64,000 bases of DNA, taken from NCBI GenBank assembly GCA_011364985.1, contig RDOC01000001.1:358532-422531 (forward strand), read 5' to 3'. The position numbers were made by a program, and so were the translations under genes. The notes beneath the pieces were generated by a model. That model saw only the letters and a list, made by a program, of their open reading frames with translations, did not search any database and was not told the DNA's origin. Source of the DNA: Candidatus Thorarchaeota archaeon. GTDB lineage: Archaea > Asgardarchaeota > Thorarchaeia > Thorarchaeales > Thorarchaeaceae. The stretch's first letter is position 1. Each line of letters starts with the position of its first letter. Shown one piece after another: positions 51,198-60,356 of this stretch.

Positions 51198-52559
51198 TCA
51201 AACTAGATCTACCGGAATGGAACGCCCTTCACACTCACGTCGCACAATCTCATACGTCCGAGCATCGAGAAGATCCCCCTTATTCCATTTCCATTGCATC
51301 TCCTTTCTATTGAACATGAAGGATGTCGCAAGCTGAACTTCGGATCCTGCCGATATGCTGTAAGCGGCATAATCATCGACTCGGGACATGGAGGAGTTTA
51401 GTGCTTTTAACAGACTGTCTGTGGTCCCGAGAGGAATAGCAGCAAAAAGAAGCACCTTCCTTTCATGAGTCTCTATGTTTTCGAGTCTTGTTGTATACGT
51501 CACTGGAAGCTGAGACCAAGCCCTGAGAATGCTTCCCGCACAATTTGGACTTGTTATGACAAGTACGCGATCCTTAAGTTGAGGAATTCTGATACGACAG
51601 CGAGGCATAATCACATTTTTTTCTAGGATTTGGCTTCGCCGTCTGAAAGCTGTGCTTTCTGAAATGCCTGTTGCTTCCACAATCTCGCTTGCTGTCGCAT
51701 CGTAGTTCTCAATCAATGTATCCAGAATACGGAGGTCGACAGGAGTGAGGTGCATGACTTCCTCTTTTCCGCGGAGCTGTTCGCCTATAACCAGATCCTC
51801 ATCCTCCCTTCTGAGCTGCATCTTCCAGTGAAAGAGGTCCAGATTCCATTCACCTCTTCTATCGCAGTACTTGCCGTTGAACATCAGTTGCCCCCGATAA
51901 ATATACCAACATGAGGCCCTGAAAGAAGTTCCACGTAATGAGCGGATGATATTTTGAATGTCATCAATGTATCTTATTGGCATTGAAGCAACCTGAAACA
52001 CCATCGGGTTTGGGCCATCTACGAAAAGCGTTTTTGTGATATACGGGCTAGATACAACCAGCTTTGGTGCTTCTAGGATTATCAAAATCTGCTGAAGTCC
52101 CATCTTCTCAAAGTTGAGAAGTCCCTCTTTTGCCAGAACACCAGCAAGACGCAATCTTTGAATTGCACGGCGCGTCTGAGAATAGGTCAGACTCATGCTC
52201 CTAGCAAGGTTTCTCAGGTCCTCTCTGGGATGTTCTACACTCCCCTTCAGCACCGTCAATTCTGTGGGACTGAACTTGGAAACATTCGCGCACCACAAGT
52301 CTTCAATCAGGGTCCACAAGTCCCTCTGAGTAATGACATCAATGCCGCCTAAAGCGAGAACTTCTACAATCCTAGTCTTCAGAGATGCATGAAGACTACC
52401 CTTATGGCTTGCGACTATCTGCCCCAATCGTTCAATTTCAGGTCCGGGCTGGAAGAGATCTATTTCTACATCATCTTCAAGATTTCTGATTGTTTTCATG
52501 AGAGCCCTAGCGCTGGGAGACAAGACTGACCCCCAATTCGGCTCATGATTGCCTGACAT
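51198..52559 (-). CDS. Large transcriptional regulator with two Lrp/AsnC-like HTH modules
   Basis: LRNLARSMSLTYSQTRRAIQRL and DLRIL...ASEIVEATGISESTAFRRR. Confidence 0.7.
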   Translation of the reverse strand: MSGNHEPNWGSVLSPSARALMKTIRNLEDDVEIDLFQPGPEIERLGQIVASHKGSLHASLKTRIVEVLALGGIDVITQRDLWTLIEDLWCANVSKFSPTELTVLKGSVEHPREDLRNLARSMSLTYSQTRRAIQRLRLAGVLAKEGLLNFEKMGLQQILIILEAPKLVVSSPYITKTLFVDGPNPMVFQVASMPIRYIDDIQNIIRSLRGTSFRASCWYIYRGQLMFNGKYCDRRGEWNLDLFHWKMQLRREDEDLVIGEQLRGKEEVMHLTPVDLRILDTLIENYDATASEIVEATGISESTAFRRRSQILEKNVIMPRCRIRIPQLKDRVLVITSPNCAGSILRAWSQLPVTYTTRLENIETHERKVLLFAAIPLGTTDSLLKALNSSMSRVDDYAAYSISAGSEVQLATSFMFNRKEMQWKWNKGDLLDARTYEIVRRECEGRSIPVDLV

Positions 52560-52650
52560 ATCCTCGCCATCCTGTTGCAAAAACAATAGCTTCACTTCCA
52601 AGTAGCTTCGTAATACCAAGGACTAAGTCCTATGTCTTGGATAAAAGCTC

Positions 52651-57288: not shown

Positions 57289-57888
57289 ATGACAAGGGAT
57301 GTCGTCGTGTATCATGTTCAAAAGGGGAAGCTTGTACGAACCCCAAATCGAGGGACCTTTGGAAGAGGCGATTGCTATCTCGTAGATGCGGGCTTGAATC
57401 TGTATATCTGGATAGGACCTAAGTCAAGCGTGGATGAGAAATTCCTGACGGCTGCTGAGGCGGTCTTCAAGGACACTGCACGCAAGGGGAACGCTAGAAT
57501 ATCCCACATCGATGGCGGACAGGAACCTGATGATTTCAAGAATCTCTTTGAGGACTTCCAACTGACTGATGAAGACACTGAAGGAATTCTGAAGAGAGTA
57601 CATCTTGAAAAACACGAATACAAGTTGTGGCGTGTGCACAGAGAAGGTGACGAAACCTTCTTCCAAGAAGTGCCTCTCGACAGAGATTATCTGAGCAGTG
57701 ATGACGTATATGTTCTTGACACATGGGAAGACATCTATGTATGGCGCGGAAGTGCAGCCAGTGCACGAGAGAAGTTCGATGCGACAATTCTCGCACGACG
57801 ATATGACGCTGAACGGGTGGGGACCCAAGACATTGAACTAATCGAGCAAGGATTTGAACCTGAAGAATTCTGGAACTTCTTCGAATAA
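57289..57888 (+). CDS. Two-domain gelsolin-like actin regulator (Asgard 2DGel type)
   Basis: Two gelsolin repeats: GDCYLVD..YIWIG..S..E and SDDVYVLD..YVWRG..S..E, each ending in EP..F..F. Confidence 0.9.
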   Translation: MTRDVVVYHVQKGKLVRTPNRGTFGRGDCYLVDAGLNLYIWIGPKSSVDEKFLTAAEAVFKDTARKGNARISHIDGGQEPDDFKNLFEDFQLTDEDTEGILKRVHLEKHEYKLWRVHREGDETFFQEVPLDRDYLSSDDVYVLDTWEDIYVWRGSAASAREKFDATILARRYDAERVGTQDIELIEQGFEPEEFWNFFE

Positions 57889-57895
57889 GATTAGT

Positions 57896-59341
57896 TTAAA
57901 CCAACCTGTAGTGACCATTGCGTGGCTCGTAGAGAGCGCCGCTATCCTTCATAGCAAGTAGTTCTCTTGCGGCCACATGACGTTCAACGCCGGCTTCGGC
58001 AGCAATCTCCTCAAGAGTTGGTCCTAGGTCCCCTTTTTTGCCTGTGTCGAGCTTCCGAAGTGCACGGAGAATCTTTGTGTTGAATTTGTGAATTGGACGG
58101 TCCTTCCCCCATGCCGCATCCAGCCCGTTTTGCAGTTCTGTAAGTTCGATAAACTCCTTAAGAGCAGGCTCAAGTATATGACTCCAAGAGCGCTTCACAT
58201 CCTTAGCAGTAATCTTATCGTTCCACCAACCTCTGGCACTTGACTGCGCAAGACGAATTGTGCTCAAGGGACGTCCCTTGATATCAGCATCGAGGAGGTG
58301 CCCTCTTGCTAATGATGCATCATCGAGGGCAAAGCTTTCCTTTAGGTCCTCTAGACCAGCAAGGACATACTTTGTCCCTGCATCAATTGTGCGCTGAGAG
58401 ATCTTTGGGAAAAGCATTTGGTAGGTGATAGAAGACTTGAGGACTGGCAATTGAAGATGAGCAGGGTTTTTCATTTCTACCCAGAAATCCTCATGGGCTA
58501 GAGCAAGTGGAATATCTGGGAGAGAAGACGTAGTTGAATCTGTCAGCACACCCAAAGATACCTCTCTAAATCCTCTTGGATCAAAACGCTTGAGACAAAG
58601 CGCTTCAGCTGTCTGCCTACGAAGCTGACCAATTGAAAGTCGCCACATCCTTGGTGTCAAGACAGAAATCCCACGAACATTATGTTTAGCATTCCATCGA
58701 CCTCTGAGAGTCGGAGGGAGAATTCCGCGTATGAAAGAAAGAAGTCGTTTGACTTGTGAGTTTGAAGCTATTGCCTGAATTCCTGCAGATAAGCCTCCTA
58801 CATTGTCTTGAAGAGGAGGACTTGACATAAATAAACGTGCAAAGACGCGTTTGCTGGCCTCGGCCATTCCAACATTCTCAAACAGCAATGCCGAGAAATT
58901 CCTGAGATTCATTGGAGGTTCGATATTGTCTAAGTAGTCCTCGGGTAAAGTGGAGTGCTCATCCACGTAGAGAACTCGTATATCAGGGCTTTTAGGTGTC
59001 CCAGCCGGTCTTGTTGTAACGAAGCGTCCTGAAATCTCCACAAAAGAACCGTCAGGTGGTGGTTCTGTATCAGAAGAAAAGAGAGCGAATTCACCCTCAA
59101 GCAACCAAGGACTTGGAGTAATCAGAATCATTCTTGTGTCTTGAGTAAGATGGACAAATCCCTGAATTTGATATTTGGTGCCAGAGAACCGAGACTTGAA
59201 ATTCTGATGCTGTTTTATCTCCCAAGCTGCCAGCTGGGCACCAAATTGTCGATCAAATACATCACTCGGAGCAACGGCATCAGCCAGACGGTCATGTCCC
59301 AGAGAATGGCGTTTGAAGAAATCTTCGCTACTCGTTTTCAT
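57896..59341 (-). CDS. Divergent MCM-like protein lacking Walker A/B
   Basis: OB-like N-domain, degenerate AAA+ core, lid RPLSTIRLAQSSAR...KDVKR, C-terminal WH GALYEPRNGHYRLV. Confidence 0.6.
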   Translation of the reverse strand: MKTSSEDFFKRHSLGHDRLADAVAPSDVFDRQFGAQLAAWEIKQHQNFKSRFSGTKYQIQGFVHLTQDTRMILITPSPWLLEGEFALFSSDTEPPPDGSFVEISGRFVTTRPAGTPKSPDIRVLYVDEHSTLPEDYLDNIEPPMNLRNFSALLFENVGMAEASKRVFARLFMSSPPLQDNVGGLSAGIQAIASNSQVKRLLSFIRGILPPTLRGRWNAKHNVRGISVLTPRMWRLSIGQLRRQTAEALCLKRFDPRGFREVSLGVLTDSTTSSLPDIPLALAHEDFWVEMKNPAHLQLPVLKSSITYQMLFPKISQRTIDAGTKYVLAGLEDLKESFALDDASLARGHLLDADIKGRPLSTIRLAQSSARGWWNDKITAKDVKRSWSHILEPALKEFIELTELQNGLDAAWGKDRPIHKFNTKILRALRKLDTGKKGDLGPTLEEIAAEAGVERHVAARELLAMKDSGALYEPRNGHYRLV

Positions 59342-60356
59342 CACCCGAAGTCTTAGTTGGAATACTGGTATGAGAATCAAACGCGCTTCCGGGATTGGAT
59401 TTCAATCTTATGTATTCCTGATATGCACGAGGGTGCTGACTTGCTAGCTCCTGAGCCGATGGCAAGCGTTCTCCATACGGTTGATAGCTTTCCCCTATCT
59501 GCACACGGTCCAGTTCAAGTTCTATTATGCGTCTTAGTTCCTTATTGATTTCGAAACCGATGAAATGTCGAAAATTCGCTTTGCATGCCACAGCAGTTGT
59601 TCCGTTTCCCATAAAGGGATCAAGGACCAAATCGCCGGGTTTCGAGGAGTAGTCGATACATTTCGCCACGACATCAAGTGGCAGTTTTGTTCCGTTCTTA
59701 GCCTCACCAAAGCGATATTTTCTTCTTACAATCCACACATCTTTCGGGTAATGCTCAACCTTGTTGAAGAAGTAGTTCTTCGAGTCTTTCACGAGAAGGA
59801 GAATATGATAGTGACTGGTCACAAACCTCCTCTTTGTAAAGACCCCAAAGTTGTAATGCCAGACGATATGGTTCAGTGTGTGTAAGCTTGCTTCACGAAC
59901 TGCACGTAGCACAGATTCTAGATTCGTCCAGCCTGAGAAGATGTAAACTGAACCATCAGGTTTGAGTATTCGCTCGACTTGTTTCGCCCATGACCTTGTG
60001 AATTCATCATATGATTCATGAACTTCTTTGTAGTTTTCAACAACAAGGGTTTCATCACGATTATATACACTGCTTTTTCCATCGAAATCGATTCCGAATG
60101 GAGGATCTGCAACTATGAGGTTTATCGTTTCATCAGGAATTCTGCTCATTCCGCTGATGCAATCCTCGTAGTAGACATGGTCTATCTTCAGGGCGTCTAG
60201 ACCATGTGATGCATTCTCATAGAGCCGTTGTGCTTCTGGTTTAGACCAGTCCGAGTCAGGTCTAAAGAAGAACTCTGCAAGATGAGGGATGTACCTCCTC
60301 TTTTCACGTTCGGAAGAAAACGCCTTGCACTTTCCAATCTTGCTCTCCACAGCCAT
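59328..60356 (-). CDS. Site-specific DNA methyltransferase (N4/N6, beta class)
   Basis: Catalytic DPPF precedes SAM-binding VLDPFMGNGTT. Confidence 0.92.
   Translation of the reverse strand: MAVESKIGKCKAFSSEREKRRYIPHLAEFFFRPDSDWSKPEAQRLYENASHGLDALKIDHVYYEDCISGMSRIPDETINLIVADPPFGIDFDGKSSVYNRDETLVVENYKEVHESYDEFTRSWAKQVERILKPDGSVYIFSGWTNLESVLRAVREASLHTLNHIVWHYNFGVFTKRRFVTSHYHILLLVKDSKNYFFNKVEHYPKDVWIVRRKYRFGEAKNGTKLPLDVVAKCIDYSSKPGDLVLDPFMGNGTTAVACKANFRHFIGFEINKELRRIIELELDRVQIGESYQPYGERLPSAQELASQHPRAYQEYIRLKSNPGSAFDSHTSIPTKTSGDENE

Follow-up and report, generated by a model that had tools for sequence, protein, structure and literature searches.

The locus

The gene considered here was analysed within a 64,000-nucleotide stretch of a Thorarchaeota genome, hereafter called the window. 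Its product, designated P0001, shows an MCM fold composed of an OB fold, a degenerate AAA+ core, a lid, and a winged helix. The coordinates and peptides reported in the initial annotation proved to be correct, and the reading frame on the reverse strand is intact. The gene and its direct neighbours are arranged as follows.

57289..57888 (+): two-domain gelsolin, convergent with the P0001 gene; syntenic, with no functional link shown
57896..59341 (-): gene for P0001, almost certainly an ATPase-dead MCM derivative, 481 aa (open reading frame, homologues, AlphaFold2 model, Foldseek, VIA)
59328..60356 (-): N6/N4 DNA methyltransferase, directly upstream of P0001 and overlapping its start by 14 bases; a usual, non-obligatory neighbour

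Gelsolin is an Asgard actin regulator, and its synteny with the dead-MCM gene is conserved. The methyltransferase is an orphan enzyme with 55-64% identity across most of the Thorarchaeota loci examined and no adjoining cognate nuclease. Elsewhere in the window, at 51198-52619 (-), a protein of 473 aa is encoded that has two AsnC/Lrp-like helix-turn-helix regions; a TrmB-like gene lies upstream of it and an RNase Z-like gene downstream. The source genome, which is 74% complete, also encodes two Orc1/Cdc6 proteins and a canonical MCM (P0160) with all motifs; the latter is located in a GINS-MCM-helicase cluster on another contig (C15) than the P0001 gene (C11).

Distribution and selection

The dead-MCM gene was found in all 76 sampled genomes of the Thorarchaeota family to which the window belongs, in single copy except in split assemblies, and the median dN/dS of 0.10 over 25 pairs points to purifying selection. 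In total, 212 homologues were retrieved, the best 120 of which share 53-82% identity at a length of about 479 aa; those carrying names are mostly from Thorarchaeota. A pseudogene or an artefact is ruled out by the intact reading frame, these homologues, and the dN/dS value. The gene order Fe-S protein, methyltransferase, dead MCM, gelsolin is conserved in Thorarchaeota. An obligate pair of dead MCM and methyltransferase was likewise considered and is ruled out, as three genomes of one genus have no methyltransferase at the locus.

Beyond this family the gene is rare, where absence means that it was not found among the genomes searched. It was detected in 7 of 224 other Asgard genomes (six at E 1e-12, one weaker), in 8/401 Thermoproteota genomes (about 2%), and in 7/301 genomes of the class of Nitrosotalea and 8/301 in a second class; the named distant members belong to Odinarchaeota, Asgardarchaeia, Methanomethyliaceae, Nitrosotalea, and Nitrosopumilus. 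The Asgard paralog envisaged in the initial annotation is therefore general within its own family (76/76), but not across Asgard archaea (7/224). An Asgard-wide eukaryotic-signature protein is ruled out, the weak Asgard matches being mostly canonical MCM tails or unrelated winged helices. In the ESM Atlas, three clusters of 412, 414, and 511 aa (81-464 members) had feature scores of 0.96-0.97 and took the top structural rows; where the phylum is known, they are mostly euryarchaeal. They look like further dead MCM derivatives, perhaps from culturable hosts, and because of this likeness in features and structure the family is probably wider still. The clusters of 412-414 aa align to about residue 405 only and seem to lack the winged-helix tail.

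Descent from MCM

In a phmmer search of the PDB, the sole match of P0001 was the archaeal MCM 8x7t, covering lid and tail (residues 353-481, E 0.0027). A profile of the dead-MCM family ranked MCMs first (E 3e-7), and profile-profile comparison with 18 Asgard MCMs gave probabilities of 96.6-97.6% and E values of about 1e-10 to 1e-11 with the full length covered. The AlphaFold2 model of P0001 (pLDDT 88, pTM 0.84) was used for structural searches, as had been proposed in the initial annotation: all top 50 Foldseek matches were MCMs (best E 5e-12), and in VIA MCMs took the top 11 places with Z 13-17 (best 4r7z, Z 17.0, rmsd 4.0, 227 aligned), whereas RavA and other AAA+ proteins reached Z values of at most 11.4. 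The succession of an OB fold, an MCM-type AAA+ core, and a lid was recognised in the model, by Foldseek, by VIA, and by profile-profile comparison, and the C-terminal MCM-type winged helix, the most MCM-like part of the protein, by phmmer, the family profile, and a Pfam search. P0001 itself gave no significant match in Pfam or NCBIfam.

The N-terminal domain taken alone is an OB fold (4me3, Z 8.5, rmsd 3.2, 77 aligned, on a par with other OB folds) and in structure comparison does not discriminate MCM from other OB folds; sub-domain hhalign comparisons of the OB fold and the AAA+ core with MCM were not significant. The motif registers given below for these two domains rest on strand order and anchor residues. 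As the phmmer, profile, Foldseek, and VIA results agree, P0001 is an MCM derivative by descent, beyond chance, with an MCM-type winged helix, as first proposed, and there is very little doubt that it is a dead one.

Domain features kept and lost

The features of P0001 are listed in the order of the protein chain, except that sub-features follow the domain in which they lie.

59195..59251 (-): conserved N-terminal segment, residues 31-49 (R31, G34, E41, F48), standing where MCM has subdomain A; core of the predicted MCM interface
58937..59194 (-): OB fold, residues 50-135, without zinc-finger insertion; putative anchor spacing 15 residues, versus 71 in MCM
59090..59116 (-): residues 76-84, putative counterpart of the MCM allosteric communication loop (register from strand order); contacts the pre-sensor-1 hairpin of the partner in the model
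58412..58924 (-): degenerate, shortened AAA+ core, residues 140-310, with 4 versus 5 core strands (model, VIA, register)
58748..58771 (-): former P-loop position, residues 191-198; V197 at the position of the Walker A lysine, with no gap from anchor G183 to anchor P209
58514..58516 (-): putative arginine-finger position, occupied by the near-invariant aspartate D276
58109..58411 (-): MCM-type lid, residues 311-411, including the sensor-2 region (sequence and profile matches)
57899..58105 (-): C-terminal MCM-type winged helix, residues 413-481 (phmmer, profile, Pfam, VIA)

Among 199 family members, neither a Walker A pattern nor an MCM Walker B was found; CxxC occurs in three of them, always outside the zinc-finger position, and SRF triplets are confined to regions outside the AAA+ core. 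The loss of the P-loop and the lack of Walker B, SRF finger, and zinc finger, which had been read from the single sequence, thus hold for the family. The loss of subdomain A and the shortening of the AAA+ core had been overlooked. Subdomain A, like the zinc-finger insertion, is absent, the OB fold starting near residue 50 and the structural match skipping about 70 residues of MCM. Between the positions of Walker A and sensor 1, P0001 has 70 residues compared to 102 in MCM; this shortfall of 32 residues apparently reflects the loss of the pre-sensor-1 hairpin and of one strand, and a single hairpin (219-228, a putative assignment) is left in between. Of the motif matches reported earlier, the sensor-2 region is indeed present in the lid, but was placed one residue out of register, since the residue aligned without a gap to MCM R584 is G356 and not R357, and segment 299-318 has two possible MCM partners, one by the hand register and one, the preceding helix, in the profile-profile alignment.

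Predicted complex with the canonical MCM

The complex of P0001 with residues 126-632 of the MCM of this genome was modelled in three runs, which yielded scores of 0.68, 0.65, and 0.68, compared to 0.01 for the best control; among 80 solved complexes, 58 attain the score mark for predicted complexes, and among 110 mismatched pairs, 2 do. The runs agree in at least 81% of the contacts, with a partner pLDDT of at least 78, and all three dock P0001 on one side of MCM, namely on the trans face (residues 430-455, 486/488, 583/586), many alignment columns of which are invariant. In the model, residues 31-49 and 76-89 of P0001 grip MCM residues 430-455, which comprise the pre-sensor-1 hairpin, including K449, and the helix that precedes it, and additional contacts are made with the N-terminal face of MCM (155-160, 200-209, 237-241) and with residues adjoining the arginine finger and sensor 2.

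A loop-to-hairpin contact between neighbouring subunits of the MCM ring has been published, and the same residues were named trans-acting (PMC4619765). Because the modelled interface matches this known contact, the complex score may reflect a memory of MCM rings or mere likeness to them. The interface residue set is no more conserved than the family average (p 0.8); for 14 core interface residues a p value of 0.03 was obtained, uncorrected for burial. Modelling with the canonical MCM, a check named in the initial annotation, gave a score far above the controls, but for an interface that mimics the known ring, and we consider binding of P0001 to MCM probable.

Genomic contexts outside the Thorarchaeota family

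In two close Thermoproteota genomes (G469 and G482), probably Bathyarchaeia, a homologue heads a GINS-MCM-Hel308 operon with RFC genes nearby (L117 9336-15668, L118 9280-15611), and in G469 its stop codon directly abuts the GINS start. This arrangement was found in 2 of 41 relatives, many of which carry a flavin reductase directly before GINS, so that the homologue appears to have been inserted at the operon head, once, and kept. Its sequence is conserved between the two genomes (dN 0.05, dS 0.44). A separate low-GC, broken copy is located about 6.5 kb from GINS-MCM in G1076. By rough arithmetic over about 24 contexts, the chance of landing at the GINS boundary is near 1%, or 15-25% if any core replication operon counts. 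The link to the GINS-MCM operon is thus suggestive, not strong. Together with the complex score, the insertion lends real but indirect support to the regulatory or chaperone MCM partner suggested in the initial annotation.

Outside Thorarchaeota, the behaviour of the homologue is that of an accessory gene. Of about 24 independent contexts, roughly half bear defence or mobile marks, a fraction to be read against an uncontrolled base rate; in others the homologue lies among housekeeping genes. The neighbours include restriction-modification, GmrSD, UvrD, toxin-antitoxin, integrase, or IS genes, and several contexts lie near tRNA genes. UvrD helicases are present at L119 and L123, toxin-antitoxin pairs and a dCTP deaminase at L041, IS110 at L043, and a Type ISP restriction-modification gene at L174, with a related gene at L077. 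One copy has a GC content of 38% within surroundings of 53-56%, three copies are broken (low-GC or broken copies at L173, L176, L179), and two Asgard copies nest within a Thermoproteota clade, both on short contigs for which mis-binning is possible. An assignment to MCM-like proteins of mobile elements, which the initial annotation had named as speaking against its reading, is hence partly borne out outside Thorarchaeota by these mobile and defence contexts. With the queries used and their limited sensitivity, no viral or plasmid copies were found in IMG/VR, INPHARED, or PLSDB, and PADLOC gave no convincing match to the dead-MCM protein (best E 0.0013, single members).

Several of these loci are worth recording in their own right. 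The islands at L174 1673-14245 and L077, one of them from a named Nitrosopumilus, are related, tRNA-linked, and have several unknown genes and the Type ISP gene in common. At L172 11174-13897 (-), in the class of Nitrosotalea, a 907-aa fusion of EVE, GmrSD, and Schlafen/AlbA_2 adjoins the homologue and is possibly a modification-dependent defence nuclease. A small integrated element of Asgardarchaeia (L044 666-9171) consists of an integrase, the homologue, and a 718-aa DUF927 AAA protein, and in Methanomethyliaceae (L034 1-9718) the homologue is surrounded by genes for a DUF1156 methyltransferase, a DUF499-like ATPase, Cren7, a divergent Cdc6, and TFIIB, a region that looks like an integrated element.

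Possible role

The dead-MCM family is real, and its function is a prediction. The reading to which we assign the highest probability, roughly 0.55, is that P0001 is a catalytically dead, one-faced pseudo-subunit which binds MCM, cannot itself be extended, and so caps or chaperones rings. Its N-terminal segment and OB fold would dock on canonical MCM at the normal position of a ring neighbour, where P0001 would cover the pre-sensor-1 hairpin of the MCM subunit and meet its trans-acting ATPase residues without offering a P-loop, so that the composite ATP site would be dead. Judging from its deletions, P0001 would be devoid of the parts that receive the next subunit, i.e. zinc-finger region, pre-sensor-1 hairpin, and arginine finger, and the MCM elements found in the interface (the strand that precedes the zinc finger, the exit from this finger, the hairpin, and the arginine finger) are those which P0001 appears to lack. 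With its receiving face lost, nothing could be added beyond P0001, and its presence at one end of an MCM oligomer would stop growth or closure. Such one-sided capping, for which we infer the loss of the second face from the deletions, is put forward tentatively, at somewhat less than even odds. In Thorarchaeota, the protein might be a domesticated regulator or chaperone that keeps MCM open or partial, resembling MCMBP by convergence; assembly, storage, unloading, and inhibition would all be compatible purposes. Since the MCM surface bound is nearly invariant, the gene could work after transfer between phyla. A wider view, in which one-faced pseudo-MCM ring caps form a mobile archaeal family that serves conflict or defence in many lineages, became a domesticated regulator in Thorarchaeota, and embodies independently the principle of MCMBP, is more speculative still. 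Against the pseudo-subunit stand the resemblance of the predicted interface to solved MCM rings, the unremarkable conservation of the interface set (p 0.8), the restriction of the operon capture to a single event, seen in two closely related genomes, the location of the Thorarchaeota gene away from MCM, and the finding that no copy was detected in about 98% of the Thermoproteota genomes searched, nor in most of the Asgard ones, although all of these replicate.

A defence or conflict factor would include the same step of MCM binding and differ in purpose: as a decoy subunit it would poison the MCM rings of viruses or plasmids or stall host replication during infection, the Thorarchaeota copy being a fixed remnant of an island. 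The marks in roughly half of the non-Thorarchaeota contexts, the low-GC and broken copies, the nesting of two Asgard copies among those of Thermoproteota, and the position of the Thorarchaeota gene after a DNA methyltransferase are all in line with it. We nevertheless regard it as rather unlikely, because no partner gene is consistent between contexts, the base rate of such marks is uncontrolled, the copies crossing phyla lie on short contigs that may be mis-binned, PADLOC found nothing convincing, and the fixed single-copy synteny in Thorarchaeota is unlike that of most defence genes, with the methyltransferase missing in one genus. A slightly lower probability is given to a stand-alone nucleic-acid binder that acts through the OB fold and winged helix it has retained, its contact with MCM having been lost. 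The Thorarchaeota gene is unlinked to MCM, and its products are mildly basic (median net charge +4.5, compared to -18 for the MCM of this genome), but many members from other lineages are acidic, the DNA-gripping hairpin is apparently lost, and both the controlled complex score and the operon insertion would be left unexplained.

Archaeal Orc1 recruits MCM through the MCM winged-helix domain, and a protein whose tail is its most MCM-like part might serve as a decoy for the Orc1/Cdc6 loader and limit helicase loading at origins; the two Orc1/Cdc6 genes of this genome and the Cdc6-like gene adjoining one homologue fit this idea, which we judge improbable since the conserved OB and AAA+ body would be unneeded and the Atlas clusters of 412-414 aa seem tail-less. 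Least probable is that P0001 represents, in archaea, the orthologue or the precursor of MCMBP or MCMDC2, two eukaryotic proteins that are related to MCM and devoid of Walker A (PMC9018068, PMC5070785). MCMBP uses its N-terminal part to bind MCM3 (PMC9018068), as predicted for P0001 with its MCM, and an MCMBP cluster was among the Atlas feature matches; its score of 0.83-0.84, however, lies below the 0.9 mark of the tool and below a viral MCM cluster (0.86-0.89). MCM_bind (PF09739) matched none of 44 members at E 0.1 and gave no candidate in the genome, no MCMDC2 match for the family was obtained in the Pfam search, and neither MCMBP nor MCMDC2 chains were among the listed fold-search matches. 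MCMBP is moreover depicted as having Walker B and an arginine finger (PMC9018068, Fig. 3 legend), whereas P0001 has lost the two; most of the Asgard families that were searched yielded no copy of the gene, and most eukaryotic replisome paralogues are ascribed to duplication on the eukaryotic line (PMC12680538). The MCM-BP/MCMDC2-like label of the initial annotation is consequently not upheld, nor is its notion of a step toward heteromeric MCM complexes, no specific link to either protein having been found.

Comparison with known systems

With archaeal MCM (8x7t, 4fdg, 6mii, 4r7z; P0160), P0001 has in common the fold, the domain order OB, AAA+, lid, and winged helix, and the sequence of lid and tail. 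It is shorter (481 versus about 690 aa), lacks subdomain A, zinc finger, Walker A, Walker B, and arginine finger, and has a shortened AAA+ core; unlike archaeal MCM, it is not essential across archaea, and in Thorarchaeota it is encoded outside the MCM operon.

MCM2 of Methanopyrus kandleri (3f8t) is inactive and, like P0001, a second, shorter archaeal MCM homologue. In VIA, P0001 matched it with Z 15.9 (rmsd 6.8, 292 aligned, 15% identical), a score tied with those of other MCMs, and there was no evidence of orthology. This protein is monomeric in the crystal (PMC4619765).

MCMBP resembles P0001 in being MCM-derived and devoid of Walker A, and has been proposed to bind MCM through its N-terminal region and to control ring assembly and the balance of hexamer and subcomplexes (PMC9018068). 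P0001 differs from it in having no sequence-family match, in its shorter length, in the additional loss of Walker B and arginine finger, and in its patchy archaeal spread, and could at most work like MCMBP, as a convergent analogue. MCMDC2, in which Walker A and B are not conserved, was proposed to modulate an active MCM partner (PMC5070785). It is a eukaryotic meiotic recombination factor whose relation to P0001 is shown only as common MCM ancestry, and only about 130 columns align between the dead-MCM family and MCM, MCMBP, and MCMDC2.

The accepted picture of archaeal MCM is that of a self-sufficient homohexamer. In a search of largely open-access literature, nothing relevant on an inactive archaeal or Asgard MCM paralogue was found. 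A conserved dead partner, if true, would be a dedicated archaeal factor for MCM assembly or inhibition, of a kind undescribed in the literature searched, and P0001 together with MCM would offer a minimal two-protein system for the control of ring opening and closure by a dead subunit, an open question about MCMBP. The family was missed by Pfam, NCBIfam, PHROGs, and PADLOC, and such paralogues are for this reason being overlooked in surveys.

According to a survey of the Asgard replisome, MCM is one of the genes that are mostly present in single copy (PMC12680538). At the Asgard MCM loci L103-L114, many MCM frames are 1,070-1,990 codons long and have their P-loop domain split, as inteins would give; the MCM of the window's genome, unlike these, is uninterrupted.
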